Origin: a bacterium
Lineage (GTDB): Bacteria; Patescibacteriota; CPR2; UBA1875; CAIMLA01
Assembly: GCA_037129835.1 (NCBI GenBank)
Contig: JBAXUE010000001.1
Coordinates: 174,858 to 238,857 of the forward strand
DNA length: 64,000 bases
Direction: 5' to 3'
Shown: one piece after another, positions 2,893 to 17,740 of the stretch
Position numbering within the stretch: position 1 is the first letter of the stretch
Layout: each line of letters begins with the position of its first letter
The notes under the pieces: generated by a model
Told to the model about the DNA's origin: nothing
The model's database searches: none
What the model saw: the letters and a program-made list of their open reading frames with translations, nothing else
Translations under genes and position numbers: made by a program

Positions 2893-3737
2893 TGAGAGAA
2901 AATGAGATATACGATAACGAAGGCCGTATTCTAAAAGCTGGTGGAATTATTATTAATAACAATAATGATATTTTGTTATATTTGAACGAAGATAGAGGAT
3001 TTGCATTCCCTAAAGGCCATTTGGAACAAGGTGAGACTTTCGAAGAGTGCGCGCACAGAGAAGTAAAAGAAGAAACAGGCTTAGATGTAGTGATTGTTGA
3101 TTATTTGTCACCAATTATCTATTTGAACCAGCACGATAACAAAGAAGTCTATATTGAGATGTTTCTAATGAAGCCATTGAATTTGGAACTTTCAACAGAG
3201 CTAAACGACGACACCCTACTGTGGGCAGATTATAATACTGCTGTTGTAAATTTGAAGCCCAATAATAAGCACCAGCATAATAGTCTTTCAGACTATTTGG
3301 TTAAAAATAAAGACAGTATATATAGAGAAAAGGTTCTTTCGGCCAACGGAGAAGTAATGAAGGCGGGAGCTTTGATTTATCGAGATTGTGGAAAAGAATT
3401 TTTACTAACCCATAGAATAAAAAGGGCGGATTATAGTTTCCCGAAGGGACATCTAGAAGCTGGTGAGTCATTTGAAGAAGCTGCAAAAAGAGAGATTATC
3501 GAAGAAACAGGCTGTGCCGTTAAAATTATCAAACCACTCGAAGATTTTAACTATGAATATCCCGAGTCTGGTAAAGTTTGTGTCAGGATGTTTTTAGCAG
3601 AGTGCGTGAGTCAAGGGGATAATCACGAATCATTTGAATCCCCGGTGTGGGTAAAGCGGGAAGAAGTAGAATCTACACTTACTTATGAAAATCTTAAAGA
3701 ATATTTTAAAGAGAATACAAAGGATCTTTTTTTATGA
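2892..3737 (+). CDS. Tandem-domain NUDIX hydrolase
   Basis: Two Nudix boxes: GHLEQGETFEECAHREVKEETGL and GHLEAGESFEEAAKREIIEETG. Confidence 0.75.
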   Translation: MRENEIYDNEGRILKAGGIIINNNNDILLYLNEDRGFAFPKGHLEQGETFEECAHREVKEETGLDVVIVDYLSPIIYLNQHDNKEVYIEMFLMKPLNLELSTELNDDTLLWADYNTAVVNLKPNNKHQHNSLSDYLVKNKDSIYREKVLSANGEVMKAGALIYRDCGKEFLLTHRIKRADYSFPKGHLEAGESFEEAAKREIIEETGCAVKIIKPLEDFNYEYPESGKVCVRMFLAECVSQGDNHESFESPVWVKREEVESTLTYENLKEYFKENTKDLFL

Positions 3738-4999
3738 AAATTGCAGTAGCTATGTCGGGTGGGGTCGATTCTTCTGTCGCTGCGGCATTGATGGTCGATA
3801 AATATGGTACACAAAATGTTTTCGGCGTGACTATGAAACTATTTTGTTATGGTGAAAGCGGCGGTAGCGATAAAAGTTGTTGTTCGTTAGACGCGATAGA
3901 CGATGCAGCTATGGTTTGCAAACAGCTTGGGATAAGTCACTATGTTGTAAATCTAGAAAAAGATTTTGAGGCAGAAATAATAGATAATTTTATTTCAGAA
4001 TATAGTCAAGGAAGGACCCCAAATCCCTGTGTGAGATGTAATAGTCTCATTAAATTCAAGCATTTATTACGAAAGGCACAGGAGCTGGGTGCTGATATTC
4101 TAGTTACGGGTCATTATGCTCGGATTCTCCCTTCTTTGTCATCCCTGGTAGTTAACCCAGGGATCTCTAGCGGCCCCTCTGACTTGTCTAGCGAAGCCTT
4201 GGTCATCGACTCTGAGGTGAGCCTCATCGCTCAGACTCGAAGGGCGAAGATGGAAGAAGATCCTCATTTTCGTAAGGATGACAACGTTTTGGGACTTTTC
4301 TGCGGTCTTGATTCCGCCAAGGATCAATCATATTTCCTTTACAATCTTGATCAATATCAGCTGGGCCACATTTGGTTCCCACTAGGGGAGCTCACAAAGC
4401 CGGAAACACGTAAATTGGCTGAGAAATATGCTCTTAAAACGGCTCAAAAGACAGAATCGCAGGACATTTGTTTTGTAACAACTACCACACAGGATTTTTT
4501 ATCCAATAAGATAAAGATAAAAGCGGGAAACATAGTAGATAAAGCCGGGAATGTACTCGGTAAACACGACGGGATACCTTTTTATACCATAGGACAGCGA
4601 AAAGGTCTCGGAGGAGGGTTTACAGAGCCAATGTATGTTACAGGGTTCGACCTTGTAAGAAATGATCTCGTCGTGGGAAGAGAAGAAGAACTATATGATG
4701 ATGAGATGATGGTGAGTGATATACATTGGACTTATGGAGCACCCGATTTACCCACTGAGATGGAAGTAAAGATTCGGTATAATTCTAAAGCGAGTTCCGC
4801 TTCACTAAATACTTCGAGCGAAGTTGAGAAGTCACGGTCTGATAGTTCTCGATCTGGCAACTGCCGGACTTCGAACAATAAAGTATTAATTAGATTCCAA
4901 AAACCTCAAAAGGCCATTACCCCTGGGCAAACTGCTGTTTTTTATATAAAAGAAGAGGTCGTTGGCGGAGGCATTATTGAGTCTACTAGAAAATATTGA
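3734..4999 (+). CDS. mnmA: tRNA-specific 2-thiouridylase MnmA carrying an in-frame ~50-aa insertion
   Basis: N-terminal PP-loop motif MKIAVAMSGGVDSSVAAALM, plus a CxxC motif, GHYAR, DQSYFLY and a C-terminal TPGQTAVFY. The protein is about 60 aa longer than typical MnmA because of two extra segments. Confidence 0.9.
   Translation: MKIAVAMSGGVDSSVAAALMVDKYGTQNVFGVTMKLFCYGESGGSDKSCCSLDAIDDAAMVCKQLGISHYVVNLEKDFEAEIIDNFISEYSQGRTPNPCVRCNSLIKFKHLLRKAQELGADILVTGHYARILPSLSSLVVNPGISSGPSDLSSEALVIDSEVSLIAQTRRAKMEEDPHFRKDDNVLGLFCGLDSAKDQSYFLYNLDQYQLGHIWFPLGELTKPETRKLAEKYALKTAQKTESQDICFVTTTTQDFLSNKIKIKAGNIVDKAGNVLGKHDGIPFYTIGQRKGLGGGFTEPMYVTGFDLVRNDLVVGREEELYDDEMMVSDIHWTYGAPDLPTEMEVKIRYNSKASSASLNTSSEVEKSRSDSSRSGNCRTSNNKVLIRFQKPQKAITPGQTAVFYIKEEVVGGGIIESTRKY
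4134..4285 (+). mobile_element. About 150-bp palindromic insertion element with 9-bp terminal inverted repeats (TTGTCATCC ... GGATGACAA), inserted in-frame in mnmA
   Basis: Terminal inverted repeats at 4135-4144 and 4277-4285. Inner hairpin ATCCCTGG-N7-CCCAGGGAT at 4141-4164, plus a second imperfect hairpin TCGACTCTGAG-N13-CTCAGACTCGA. It encodes LSSLVVNPGISSGPS...EEDPHFRKDDN, which is absent from MnmA homologues at the GHYAR/LDSxKDQSYFLY junction. A second copy lies at 16242-16318. Confidence 0.6.
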
Positions 5000-5035
5000 C
5001 TGTAATGATATAATAAAAGCACAGAAATGCAGTCT

Positions 5036-5066
5036 ATCAGGTTCTCTTACAGAGAGCCTGTTTTGA
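5036..5066 (+). terminator. Hairpin CAGGTTCTCT-tac-AGAGAGCCTG followed by TTTTG; putative mnmA terminator
   Basis: Inverted repeat with a T-run, 37 nt after the mnmA stop. Confidence 0.45.
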
Positions 5067-5108
5067 TAGATACGGTTCGTACCATTTATTCAGTAGGAGG
5101 TGAGTACA

Positions 5109-5372
5109 GTGAAGACTGTCCGCGAAAGAGCGCTTCCAGAAGAAGTGGTGGTAGAGGCTCTTAGTCTTACTACCGCTGAGTCAGCGAAGGTAAGTACGCT
5201 AGTGCGCTGGTTGCAGTGCAACAAAAAATGGCGTCGTGACCGAGACAACAAATTTTCTGAGAAGCAACTAGGGGACGCTCTACGTGCTACCGAAACGGAC
5301 TTTCCTGATTATGAGCGCCGAATGGTACTTATGAACAAGCTGCTGGTACTAGATCAGGAGCGAGGGGGATGA
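5109..5372 (+). CDS. Hypothetical protein in a GC-rich island (GTG start after AGGAGGTGAG)
   Basis: ORF of about 88 aa. RBS AGGAGG at 5094-5099. GC content is clearly above the flanks. No recognisable motif. Confidence 0.4.
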   Translation: MKTVRERALPEEVVVEALSLTTAESAKVSTLVRWLQCNKKWRRDRDNKFSEKQLGDALRATETDFPDYERRMVLMNKLLVLDQERGG

Positions 5373-5392
5373 TCTTCTTGTACGAAAAACTG

Positions 5393-5456
5393 AATCGGCG
5401 GACAAAAGTAGCCGCCTGAGGGTCGCAGTGCGCAAGTGCTAGCGACCCTCGTCCTT
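5393..5456 (+). terminator. Two consecutive GC hairpins (GGCGG-N9-CCGCC, then GAGGGTCGC-N15-GCGACCCTC) followed by TTTTATT
   Basis: Inverted repeats are directly visible, with a T-run after the second hairpin. Confidence 0.5.
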
Positions 5457-5457
5457 T

Positions 5458-5486
5458 TATTGACGAAACATACATTTGGGTATAAA
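5458..5486 (+). promoter_or_regulatory. Sigma70-like promoter TTGACG-17-TAAAAT upstream of the 5547 ORF
   Basis: The -35 and -10 hexamers are separated by 17 nt. They are followed by a GGAGG RBS before the ATG at 5547. Confidence 0.4.
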
Positions 5487-5546
5487 ATACATCACCGTAG
5501 TCGGAGGGCAGAAAGCTGCCAGCCATTATCTATCTGGAGGTATGAT

Positions 5547-5972
5547 ATGGGGATGTCACTGCGCGACAAAGTTCTAGACAGAGTACAGTCGGCCGTCTCG
5601 GCAAGATCGCCAGTAATCATTGCTTACGATTTTGTCAGCGCCTACGAAATCGCTATTGATAGTGGCGACAATGAAGGCGATGACCTTGCCTGTGCTGTCG
5701 GTACTGCTCTTGAGGAGTATTTACTAGAGAACAGTCCAGACTTCGCGGCGAATATCGCTGTGAGGGCGTACATCTCTGCAATCGACATCGGTGGGGATAC
5801 CGGAACAGAGATTTGCAATCAGCTCAGAGTCATCTATACACGCGCGTGTGAAAAGTCAGGGGAGTTTCTTGCTTCTCTGCATTACCACCAGAACGGAATC
5901 GGTGCTGACCTGGCATACTTGGGTCGGAATGGCTGTACGGTTCGACCAAAATTCGGTTTTGGCCGTTCCTAG
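5547..5972 (+). CDS. Hypothetical protein (about 141 aa) in the GC-rich island
   Basis: ATG preceded by CTGGAGGT. The listed ORF start at 5436 lacks an RBS. Acidic and Ala-rich. No recognisable domain. Confidence 0.45.
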   Translation: MGMSLRDKVLDRVQSAVSARSPVIIAYDFVSAYEIAIDSGDNEGDDLACAVGTALEEYLLENSPDFAANIAVRAYISAIDIGGDTGTEICNQLRVIYTRACEKSGEFLASLHYHQNGIGADLAYLGRNGCTVRPKFGFGRS

Positions 5973-6052
5973 CTCGACTACGGTAGGTGCCCCTTTTGGG
6001 GGCGCCTACCAAGAGCATTGAGAATAAGCTATATTTAAGATAATATATTGAT

Positions 6053-15835: not shown

Positions 15836-16756
15836 ATGAATATCAAGGAAGCTAGTATTTGGGCTAGAAAAGTCCTGAAAGATAACGAAGTTGACTCGCC
15901 AGAGGCATCTGCGGATTTTTTGCTCAGGCAACTTTTAGCCATTGATAAAGCTCAGATGCTGACTCACCCAGAAGAGAAAATACCCAAGCTACAAGAGCTT
16001 AAGTTTCGCCGCTGGGTAAAGAAAAGATCAAAACACGAACCAGTCTGGTATATTACTGGGAAAATTGAGTTTATGGAGCTAGATCTCGCTGTTAATCAAA
16101 GTGTTCTTATCCCGCGACCTGAAACAGAGTTATTGGTTGAGAAAATACTCGCTCAATACAAAATACAAAATACAAAATACAAAATATTAGATGTCGGTAC
16201 GGGTAGTGGGACTATAATTCTTTCTTTGGCAAAACATCTTCCTTTGTCATCCCTGGTCGCAAACCCAGGGATCTCTAGCGTTCCCTCCGAAGGAGATCCT
16301 CGTGTTCGTAAGGACAACATATGCTTTTTTGCCTCTGATATTTCTTCAACAGCTCTGGATACAGCTAAGAAAAACAAGAAAAATAATAATATTGCTCCAG
16401 AAATCAAGTTTGTGGAAGGGGATTTGTTCGGTCCTTGGGCGGGAGAAAAATTTGATCTTGTCGTTGCAAATCTACCATATGTGCCTCACGAAGACATGGC
16501 TACTCTCGCATTTGATTTAACTCATTATGAGCCAAGAGTCGCCCTGGATGGAGGTATCCTAGGTCTTGAAGTCTATAAAAGATTTATTGAAGAATTGCCA
16601 AATTATTTAAATCCTGGCGCGAAAGTATTTATGGAAATCGGTTATGATCAGGGAAGATATATCGAGGATTTTGTACATAAATATTTGCCGAAAGCAAAAG
16701 TAGAAACACTGGGTGACTACCGCCAAATTGATCGAATAGTTGTCATAGAAACCTAG
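15836..16756 (+). CDS. prmC: Release-factor glutamine methyltransferase PrmC/HemK with an in-frame ~25-aa insertion
   Basis: LDVGTGSGTI SAM motif and the NLPY (NPPY-type) catalytic motif. Extra segment LSSLVANPGISSVPSEGDPRVRKDN lies between the SAM motif and motif II. Confidence 0.85.
   Translation: MNIKEASIWARKVLKDNEVDSPEASADFLLRQLLAIDKAQMLTHPEEKIPKLQELKFRRWVKKRSKHEPVWYITGKIEFMELDLAVNQSVLIPRPETELLVEKILAQYKIQNTKYKILDVGTGSGTIILSLAKHLPLSSLVANPGISSVPSEGDPRVRKDNICFFASDISSTALDTAKKNKKNNNIAPEIKFVEGDLFGPWAGEKFDLVVANLPYVPHEDMATLAFDLTHYEPRVALDGGILGLEVYKRFIEELPNYLNPGAKVFMEIGYDQGRYIEDFVHKYLPKAKVETLGDYRQIDRIVVIET
16156..16183 (+). repeat. Heptanucleotide tandem repeat (ATACAAA)x4 inside the prmC coding sequence
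   Basis: Four perfect 7-nt units, translated as QNTKYKIL. Confidence 0.8.
16242..16318 (+). mobile_element. Internally deleted (~75 bp) copy of the palindromic in-frame insertion element, inside prmC
   Basis: Shares CTTTGTCATCCCTGGT-N5-AACCCAGGGATCTCTAGCG and GATCCTC-N4-TTCGTAAGGA(TG)ACAAC with the mnmA copy, both nearly identical. Lacks the central ~80 bp. Confidence 0.55.
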
Positions 16757-16816
16757 AAAACAAAACATATACGTGCTAAAATCTTTTCGTCATTCTGAAC
16801 TTGTTTCAGAATTCTA

Positions 16817-16892
16817 CGGGCCCTTAGCTCATCTGGTAGAGCGCGTCCATGGCATGGATGAGGTGGCAGGTTCGAGTCCTGTAGGGTCCACC
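16817..16892 (+). tRNA. tRNA-Ala (anticodon GGC), CCA encoded
   Basis: Cloverleaf folds manually. Acceptor GGGCCCT/AGGGTCC contains the G3:U70 Ala identity pair. Anticodon loop is ATGGCAT. Confidence 0.85.
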
Positions 16893-17058
16893 AGATATTC
16901 AGCAGGCCCTATTTTATTAAGATGGTTTGCACCGAGGAGGTAGCAGGTTCCCAGCCCGACAGAGTCATTCTGGCGGGAAGTCGTGCCCGCCCGCCCGTAG
17001 TATGACGAAGGAGGGTTGGGTCCACCATATTGACCCCATATTACTTGGTTGGAACAAA
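16893..17058 (+). other. GC-rich structured non-coding segment downstream of tRNA-Ala. Candidate ncRNA or tRNA-end remnant plus one copy of the intergenic repeat family
   Basis: Hairpin GGCGGG-N8-CCCGCC. GGGTCCACCA at 17018-17027 duplicates the tRNA-Ala 3' end. Positions 17010-17056 resemble the repeats at 19837 and 25425. The 62-aa ORF at 16927..17115 is unlikely to be coding. Confidence 0.3.
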
Positions 17059-17085
17059 GAGGTAGAAATACCTCTTTTTGTGTTA
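17059..17085 (+). terminator. Rho-independent terminator AGAGGTA-gaaa-TACCTCT + TTTTTGTG
   Basis: Perfect 7-bp stem followed by a T-run. Confidence 0.6.
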
Positions 17086-17095
17086 ATATTATCTT

Positions 17096-17740
17096 ATGAG
17101 GGCGTTATTTTCTGAACCAACCGTTAAATTCTGCGAAGAAGCAACCAGGGGTATAATCAAAAGACCTTATTATGCTTTGTCCAATTTTGCATTCTTCATT
17201 TCCGCAATCGCGATTTTCGTCAAGGGGAAGGGTTCAAAACTTTCAAAAATATTTGGCACCACCGCTTTATTAATCGGGTTCTTTTCTTTGGTGTACGATT
17301 CAACCTATATTTATCTTGCCCAGTTGTTTGATATCAGCGGGATGCTTTTATTTGTTAACGTTTTGTTATACCTAAATCTTAAGAATGTATTCAAAGCAAA
17401 AACCCTACTACTTACCCAGTTGCTTTTATTCGTTTTAAATATGATTTTAATTATCACTTTTCAAGGTCACTCGGGTAATATCATATTTGGATTATACATA
17501 ACTGCAGTAGTTGTTTCCGAGGTTTATTTAATAAATAGTAAGATACACACAAATTTATGGAAATGGTTGGTGCCCTTCGGAATTTTTATTATCAGTTTCC
17601 TGATATGGATTTTGGATGCAAGGAAAATATTTTGTTCACCTGTCGGGTTACTCAATGGTAGGGCAATATTTCATTATCTTAACGCGATTGTAATTTACCA
17701 GTTATACAAATTTTACGATTCACAAAAAGAGTTAACCTAA
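17096..17740 (+). CDS. Hypothetical polytopic membrane protein (about 6-7 TM)
   Basis: Hydrophobic periodicity only. No recognisable motif. Confidence 0.45.
   Translation: MRALFSEPTVKFCEEATRGIIKRPYYALSNFAFFISAIAIFVKGKGSKLSKIFGTTALLIGFFSLVYDSTYIYLAQLFDISGMLLFVNVLLYLNLKNVFKAKTLLLTQLLLFVLNMILIITFQGHSGNIIFGLYITAVVVSEVYLINSKIHTNLWKWLVPFGIFIISFLIWILDARKIFCSPVGLLNGRAIFHYLNAIVIYQLYKFYDSQKELT

Follow-up and report, generated by a model that had tools for sequence, protein, structure and literature searches.

A probable TGTC-tagged palindromic repeat lying in-frame in prmC of a Patescibacteria (CPR) bacterium

Introduction

Palindromic repeats that lie in-frame in housekeeping genes first became well known from Rickettsia, where the Rickettsia palindromic elements (RPEs) RPE-1 to RPE-10 were reportedly described by Ogata et al. 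in 2000 and by Claverie and Ogata in 2003; intragenic repetitive extragenic palindromes (REPs) were catalogued later, mainly in Proteobacteria. Here we describe a 75-nt segment that lies in-frame in prmC (hemK), the gene for the release-factor glutamine N5-methyltransferase, an essential enzyme, in a stretch of 64,000 nt (the window) of contig JBAXUE010000001.1, from a bacterium of the Patescibacteria (Candidate Phyla Radiation, CPR). We put at roughly 80% the probability that this segment is a short palindromic repeat, non-coding by origin, built as a head-head heterodimer of two TGTC-tagged REP hairpins and belonging to the superfamily of CGTC-tagged REPs; a longer copy of the same family lies in mnmA of the same window. 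This is a known phenomenon extended to a new lineage, and no new kind of element: the interest lies mainly in the new host lineage, in the nesting of modules and in the apparent allele-level exchange of elements.

CGTC-tagged REPs have been described by Di Nocera, De Gregorio and Rocco (2013, BMC Genomics 14:522; PMC3733652). They carry a CGTC tag, with TGTC or CCTC allowed, followed by 8-bp stems starting with AT, a loop of 4-5 nt (with exceptions noted) and a 3-nt tail whose consensus is CCA (PMC3733652). They mostly form head-head dimers with the tags outside, separated by spacers of 20-100 bp that are conserved and in many cases structured. Dimers can be hybrid, those within genes encode 20-30 residues, and related species may carry different REPs at roughly the same position of a gene (PMC3733652). 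No dedicated transposase is known for the class, the RPE-4 and RPE-6 repeats of R. conorii are CGTC-4 and CGTC-1 repeats, respectively, and the dRS3 repeat of Neisseria is a CGTC-1 repeat (PMC3733652). In Rickettsia, elements of the RPE-1 type measure 100-150 bp, and PheT contains an RPE-7-like insert of 63-84 bp (PMC1779305).

The repeat in prmC

The host gene is an open reading frame (ORF) that contains the Pfam domains PrmC_N and methyltransferase and matches HemK upon comparison with the PDB. The frame is open throughout, and the insert contributes the residues LSSLVANPGISSVPSEGDPRVRKDN, at about positions 137-161, with a peptide that starts LSSLVANPGISS; the addition of some 25 in-frame codons, claimed in a preliminary description of this DNA, is therefore correct. 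The G+C content (GC) of the element is 54-56%, that of the whole window 39%. The same allele with the insert has been found in three independent assemblies (L001-L003; related loci and homologous proteins are given by L and P numbers), which rules out an assembly artefact.

The kinship of the prmC segment with a segment of mnmA, the starting point of the preliminary description, is borne out by three kinds of comparison. Pairwise alignment of 16242-16318 with 4134-4285 confirms the similarity at both ends: blastn pairs 16242-16280 with 4134-4172 (92% over 39 nt, 36/39 bases, E 5e-10) and 16289-16314 with 4253-4278 (88% over 26 nt, 23/26 bases). The window contains two occurrences of the 19-mer AACCCAGGGATCTCTAGCG, versus 0.01 expected from shuffles. 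Finally, an nhmmer profile built from copies in other metagenome contigs only, with both window copies left out, matches 16244-16319 at full length and gapless (E 3.6e-24) and the mnmA copy at 4136-4284 with a single 72-nt insertion (E 5.4e-13), and matches nothing else in the 64 kb of the window. The full-length gapless match to the family profile makes the prmC copy a canonical unit. Rfam 15 yielded no family, either at the gathering score or at E up to 1 over 16200-17110.

A native, lineage-specific loop of PrmC that resembles the mnmA segment by chance or low complexity would be in keeping with the length variation that PrmC homologues show at this loop. However, the similarity is far above chance by the 19-mer, blastn and the profile, the GC of the element is 15 points above that of the surrounding gene, and full-length copies are present between genes and within members of five other gene families. 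The intergenic copies already refute this explanation, to which we give practically no credence.

The anatomy of the segment is that expected of a REP dimer, with tags at both outer ends of the element (Table 1). A T/C-GTC sequence precedes the stem in 21/21 copies, while the tail is CTC on both arms of the family and CCA in chimeric copies (GGGATCCA, GGAATCCA), which are described below. In the 5' arm, all 8 pairs of the stem ATCCCTGG/CCAGGGAT are retained in 13/13 aligned copies, and the loop measures 8 nt; counting a T-A pair with a bulged C would shorten it to 5 nt. The spacer that joins the two arms is 23 nt long, conserved and structured, and is the nesting place of extra modules in long copies. 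The stem of the 3' arm, ATCCT-C-AC/GT-A-AGGAT, has 8 bp with one internal mismatch and a 4-nt loop (TTTC/GTTC); RNAalifold found one compensatory pair, an A-T to G-C change at pair 61-68 of this arm, in 3 copies. The 3' arm of the prmC copy is degraded by two transitions at 16315/16316, from GGATGACA to GGACAACA, which are the sole defects of the copy, and in the family alignment the tag GACA reads AACA in this copy only. A 3-nt deletion at the same end had also been considered and was dropped; the family alignment accounts for the end by the two transitions.

Table 1. Features of the prmC and mnmA loci (positions in the window)
Feature	Position	Strand	Description and basis
prmC (hemK), release-factor glutamine N5-methyltransferase, 306 aa	15836..16756	+	Host gene of the element; ORF, Pfam, PDB, AlphaFold
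75-nt core element, head-head heterodimer of two TGTC-tagged REP hairpins	16245..16319	+	Best boundaries, TGTC...AACA; profile search, family alignments
5' arm	16245..16275	+	Tag TGTC 16245-48, tail CTC 16273-75; read from sequence
5' arm hairpin	16249..16272	+	Stem ATCCCTGG 16249-56, loop TCGCAAAC 16257-64, stem CCAGGGAT 16265-72
Conserved spacer with small stem-loop CTCC-GAA-GGAG (16285-95)	16276..16295	+	Family alignment; consensus fold pairs 43-52
3' arm	16293..16319	-	Canonical minus-strand form TGTC-ATCCTTAC-GAAA-GTGAGGAT-CTC
Long 147-nt copy in mnmA (3734-4999)	4137..4283	+	Core plus nested 72-nt block at 4183-4254; in-frame
Inner nested GTCA-tagged module of the mnmA copy	4202..4249	+	47/49 identity, reverse complement of the L012 3' arm module
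Single CGTC-tagged REP, CGTC-ATTCTGAA-CTTGT-TTCAGAAT-TCT	16788..16815	+	Between the prmC stop and tRNA-Ala

Dispersed copies of the family

Scanning of metagenomes with a pattern for the 5' hairpin (GTCATCCCTGG-N6-10-CCCAGGGATC) yielded 27 loci that bear the 5' arm, around 20 of which are from low-GC, CPR-like contigs, and the whole 75-nt architecture (TGTCATCCCTGG-N8-CCAGGGATCTCTnnCGnnCCCTCCGAAGGAGATCCTCACTTTCGTAAGGATGACA) is common to about 20 low-GC copies. The closest species-representative relatives of PrmC are metagenome-assembled genomes labelled Candidatus Saccharibacteria or Patescibacteria group, with up to 64% identity, and relatives of MnmA bear the same labels; contigs of species-representative genomes gave no match to TGTCATCCCTGG-N8-CCCAGGGATC, so that the family is absent from them in that exact form. 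At the protein level, a word-indexed search with concatenated element peptides from three frames gave no candidate, and a two-sequence profile of the element peptides, a query too short to say anything about absence, found none with HMMER at E up to 0.001. Viral contigs did not match the 5' arm pattern, and with the 3' arm pattern one high-GC viral contig was found to carry that hairpin only (DPRFRKDD), which is uninformative for this lineage.

A near-identical 5' hairpin, CGTCATCCCTGGGCTTGACCCAGGGATC, with a 9-bp stem and a 5-nt loop, is also present in contigs of 63-68% GC (L009, L010, L019, L025 and L027-L029) that come from unrelated organisms. This resemblance suggests that the 5' stem type may be common to several phyla, as the paper on the CGTC superfamily proposes.

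Copies of the family are found both between and within genes. Intergenic copies lie immediately upstream of a tRNA in L007/L008 and in the 5' leader of grpE in L026. Besides prmC and mnmA, copies within ORFs are found in PheT between the tRNA-binding and B3_4 domains (L024), in a MiaB-like enzyme between the UPF0004 and radical-SAM domains, near the N-terminus of Dus, in the C-terminal tail of a DHH phosphoesterase and at the C-terminus of a WecG-type glycosyltransferase; chimeric copies in the opposite orientation lie in QueH and in a phosphoenolpyruvate (PEP)-utiliser-like protein. The Dus ORF of L017 (3750-3820) contains two different in-frame tagged-REP dimers, the N-terminal one being of the prmC family with a CGTC-1-type arm and the other internal (SLSSLVTSQGPSPKLDSWPPTRNDK).

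The family consensus offers two stop-free frames on the plus strand, and 7/7 Pfam-supported copies in the same orientation, the two of the window among them, are read in the Ser/Pro/Gly/Asp-rich frame SSLVANPGISS. In genes, the element keeps an open frame and a length of 3n. In particular, units measured from the T of the tag to the A of the opposite tag are 75, 105 or 147 nt long, and some intergenic copies measure 74 or 76 nt. No target-site duplication flanks any of the 21 copies examined, and, with lengths of 3n and no target duplication, insertion is frame-neutral by construction. The suggestion that a mobile, frame-tolerant element had entered two unrelated housekeeping genes in-frame has held up: the element behaves as mobile or proliferating and frame-tolerant because it lies in-frame in two genes, has dispersed copies and faces empty sites in relatives.

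The further label 'MITE-like' (miniature inverted-repeat transposable element) needs refinement, given the lack of target-site duplication, the failure to find a related insertion sequence (IS) and the architecture of a REP head-head dimer. A classical MITE would be a deletion derivative of an IS, moved in trans by a DDE transposase acting on terminal inverted repeats of 8-9 nt, here TTGTCATCC/GGATGACAA. Such repeats are indeed present, and the element is short, dispersed and non-autonomous. Yet a target-site duplication is found in 0/21 copies, and no longer element or transposase gene with matching ends was found in the window or the related loci. Moreover, the apparent inverted repeats consist of the tags and the first bases of the stems from two different REP hairpins, and the arms are freely recombined with those of other tagged hairpins, as happens in REP dimers (PMC3733652). 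A classical MITE is thus a very unlikely identity for the element.

Modular long forms

The 75-nt form is the commonest of the family, with at least 8 independent copies, and in longer copies additional modules are nested within hairpin loops. Additions of 30 nt in the central loop are found in L006a, L018 and L030, while the loop of the 3' hairpin is enlarged by 33 nt in L021 and by 42 nt in L012. The 72-nt block of the mnmA copy consists of the 30-nt module split by a 42-nt module, and the latter also occurs by itself, inverted, where it makes up the 3' arm of the L012 copy. As this module occurs independently elsewhere, it was inserted into the mnmA copy and not deleted from the prmC copy.

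These data bear on the claim that the prmC segment lacks the central part of the element. The difference between the two window copies exists, but it measures 72 nt and not about 80, and the term 'internally deleted copy' is not supported as it stands: the prmC copy corresponds at full length to the commonest form, that of 75 nt, and the 72 nt of the mnmA copy are nested additions. Derivation of the prmC copy by internal deletion from a long master element of 147 or 105 nt could draw on the orthologous sites of L006a (105 nt) and L016 (75 nt), whose flanks are 82% identical and which differ by exactly the 30-nt module, so that a loss of 30 nt by deletion or conversion is possible; the module may have been either gained or lost there. 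The 30-nt module is also homologous in four copies, so that a long sub-family propagates as a unit. Nevertheless, the 75-nt form is the most frequent and the most widely placed, the prmC copy is gapless against it, and the 42 nt at the centre of the mnmA block form a separate tagged module known from another context and orientation. A deletion origin therefore appears quite unlikely.

Arms are also combined with those of other families. In the chimeric copies of L005, L011, L013, L014 and L017, the 5' arm of the prmC family is joined to an CGTCATTCCCGCGAAGGCGGGAATCCA arm. This arm is presumably of the dRS3 type, whose consensus we take to be ATTCCC-N8-GGGAAT, dRS3 being a CGTC-1 repeat. More generally, GTCAT adjoins 37/99 GC-rich hairpins in 252 kb of related loci, versus 1.2 expected, and the search pattern had not selected for 16 of them.

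Effect on the PrmC protein

Compared with E. coli HemK (2b3t/1t43), the window protein has 25 extra residues between HemK residues 138 and 140, after the helix that follows motif I (GxGxG) and before strand beta2. An AlphaFold model of PrmC computed with 25 homologues has a mean predicted local distance difference test score (pLDDT) of 83.7, and the score falls below 50 at residues 139-159 only, in the coil between helix 126-134 and strand 163-168; the insert is predicted by this model to be a disordered surface loop. From the topology of class I methyltransferases, we take the loop to lie at the N-terminus of beta2, remote from the S-adenosylmethionine site. The window protein and its 99% identical relative P0001 differ by two amino acids, both inside the insert, a distribution consistent with relaxed constraint.

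The possibility was also considered that the segment is functional, either as an mRNA element that modulates the translation or stability of prmC, as a selected protein loop, or as a hypervariable cassette site. The fold predicted for the element contains stable hairpins (-22.5 kcal/mol), REPs have been proposed to be RNA elements (PMC3733652), and the same loop is filled by different elements in close strains as well as in many distant homologues of both PrmC and MnmA. On the other hand, the same element is found in unrelated genes and in intergenic DNA, the folding z-scores are non-significant, the encoded peptide is predicted to be disordered, the sole substitutions between near-identical alleles collect in the insert, and relatives do well with an empty site. 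A function for the segment is thus highly improbable, and we infer an element without function, selfish or neutral; the prmC copy is most likely neutral or slightly deleterious passenger DNA.

Empty and alternatively filled loops

Comparison with relatives, proposed earlier as a way to find an empty site and possibly a target-site duplication, did reveal empty sites. The PrmC homologues P0005-P0008 (63-65% identity) have no insert at the position of the prmC element, and the MnmA homologues P0124 and P0127-P0132 are likewise without insert.

Closer alleles of prmC are filled differently. Over 2.2 kb, the strain variants L090 and L091, which come from the same lake metagenomes, reach about 95% identity; their flanks differ at 0-8 positions per 100 nt, and a downstream run of about 570 nt is free of mismatches. 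At the same PrmC loop, they carry an unrelated tagged element, CGTCATCCTGAG...CTCAGAATGAC. In the allele L093 (81% protein and about 79% DNA identity), yet another family is found in the loop, and more distant PrmC homologues have assorted hairpin-derived peptides there.

MnmA shows two variable loops. The first insert lies at a position where extra residues separate B. subtilis MnmA residues 134 and 136; the syntenic locus L096 is empty, while locus L095 carries a sister element with the same 3' arm and a 5' stem in which a compensatory change has converted CCCTGG/CCAGGG to CCCCGG/CCGGGG. The window mnmA also contains a second in-frame insert near the C-terminus (4813-4880, residues ~361-383, about 19-22 codons, SSEVEKSRSDSSRSGNCRTSNN), which belongs to a different palindromic family (ACTTCGAGCGAAGTTGAGAAGTC...CTTCGAAC), the same that fills the PrmC loop in L093. 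Fragments of this second family are present in L004, L005 and L006, and nearly every MnmA homologue has some different insert at the second, C-terminal loop. The MnmA protein identical to that of the window is recorded in NCBI (P0121) only as 'tRNA methyl transferase PRC-barrel domain-containing protein', and this name is probably due to two repeat inserts that break the family model.

The presence of three unrelated elements at one loop in close strains is the least explained feature of the locus. It could reflect the filtering of repeated insertions by a permissive site, or replacement at an occupied site. A stronger form of the latter idea is that, in this CPR lineage, tagged REP dimers have become frame-neutral coding cassettes with one preferred stop-free frame, exchanged at fixed permissive loops of essential enzymes by site-directed replacement or recombination. 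This proposal is based on the three unrelated elements at the identical PrmC loop, in two alleles of about 95% and one of about 79% DNA identity, and on the many different elements at the two MnmA loops; we advance it tentatively and consider it unlikely. If it were true, loop hypervariability in housekeeping proteins would be generated by cassette exchange, instead of by random insertion filtered by selection.

A model for the spread of the element

According to the tagged-REP reading, the family would have proliferated in a Patescibacteria lineage, in both intergenic DNA and genes. Insertion in the stop-free Ser/Pro/Gly/Asp-rich frame would leave a gene unbroken, adding 25 codons with no target duplication, and copies in genes have lasted only where the protein tolerates them, for example in surface loops, in linkers between domains and at termini. 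For prmC, translation would yield a disordered 25-residue loop between the helix that follows motif I and strand beta2. What the data show directly is family membership, the architecture, the in-frame position, sites that are empty or otherwise occupied, and the disorder predicted for the product. Spread could occur through some enzyme acting on single-stranded hairpins, or through recombination or gene conversion between copies. No mobiliser was identified in the window and related loci: Pfam found no transposase among 20 window ORFs (first 25 kb of the window), and tblastn over about 0.9 Mb of related loci found no HUH transposase with an IS608 TnpA query, a weak negative.

Several points weigh against this reading. 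Neither a transposition event nor a mobilising enzyme was observed, nor a recent empty allele (above 90% identity), and the 64-kb window, part of a contig of 372 kb, contains two copies only of the family. Covariation of the hairpins is thin, amounting to one compensatory pair within the family and one in the sister element, since the stem positions are for the most part invariant and were in part set by the search pattern. The folding energies of single copies are not significantly better than those of shuffles (z = -0.74 and -1.37), so that no significance is claimed for the RNA structure. The 8-nt loop of the 5' arm differs from the 4-5 nt published for CGTC-tagged REPs. Finally, translation of the insert, as opposed to its removal, is inferred from the conservation of the open frame only.

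If the tagged-REP reading is right, the same class of repeats colonises translation and tRNA-modification enzymes (PrmC, MnmA, PheT, Dus and MiaB-like) in a CPR lineage. Such inserts inflate and diversify CPR protein sequences, break alignments to domain models, and can mislead phylogenies and strain typing. In parallel, strain alleles that occur together and bear different elements at one loop provide a natural system in which to study the movement of CGTC-type REPs.

Neighbouring features

Other repeats and unusual stretches lie near the two genes. The single CGTC-tagged REP that follows prmC is conserved in the strain variants L090-L092. Just downstream of tRNA-Ala, the GC-rich stretch 16927-17035 contains GAGTCATTCTGGCGGGAAGTCGTGCCCGCCCGCCCGTAGTATGACG, with GTCAT...ATGAC ends. 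Rfam has no counterpart of the stretch at E up to 1; a degenerate tagged-REP dimer and a small RNA are both possible identities. Within the prmC coding sequence, the heptanucleotide AATACAA is perfectly repeated in tandem 4.6 times (16155-16186, QYKIQNTKYKI). This repeat is present in the allele L090 and replaced by unrelated sequence in L091, and could be a slippage-prone site, where one unit gained or lost would shift the frame.

The interval between mnmA and alaS (5000-6050) is unusually GC-rich (46% over 4001-6000) and contains two ORFs without Pfam match, at 5100-5372 and 5436-5972, whereas the syntenic loci L095 and L096 have only ORFs of 62-78 codons between the two genes. The interval could be foreign DNA or encode an unannotated RNA.

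Comparison with known systems

Among small non-autonomous repeats, bacterial MITEs such as the enterobacterial repetitive intergenic consensus (ERIC) and Coxiella QMITE1/2 (PMC10969869) also give rise to in-frame fusions, but they have direct repeats or target duplications and IS-related ends, none of which was found for the prmC element. Similarity also exists to the system of REP doublets forming hairpins (REPINs) and REP-associated tyrosine transposases (RAYTs), in which inverted doublets of tagged hairpins are the replicating unit and target duplication is likewise absent; the tag of the prmC family is, however, TGTC/CGTC and not GTAG, and no RAYT gene was found in a weak tblastn test. The dRS3 repeats of Neisseria are intergenic and serve as phage integration sites, and the CGTCATTCCCGCGAAGGCGGGAATCCA-type arm that recalls them is absent from the prmC copy.

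With CGTC-tagged REPs, the element shares the TGTC tag at its outer ends, stems of 8 bp that begin with AT, tails of 3 nt, the inverted dimer and the spacer stem-loop, as well as the occurrence of heterodimers and hybrid dimers, the coding of about 25 residues within genes, the presence of differing elements at one gene site and the absence of any transposase found with it. It differs in that its stem sequences are new, tagged modules are nested in loops, and a large share of the copies found lies in-frame in genes. Moreover, Patescibacteria are not among the phyla surveyed for these repeats (PMC3733652), and no report of such repeats in CPR was found in the literature.

The closest functional analogue is the phenomenon of Rickettsia palindromic elements (PMC10969869, PMC1779305, PMC1166351). 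The prmC core is shorter, at 75 nt, its host belongs to another phylum and not to the Rickettsiales, and the comparison is made by features. In both cases, however, a palindromic repeat is found in intergenic DNA and in-frame in housekeeping genes of a bacterium with a reduced genome, at positions where an additional peptide is permissible. A host gene is also shared, since PheT carries an insert both in Rickettsia and in L024.

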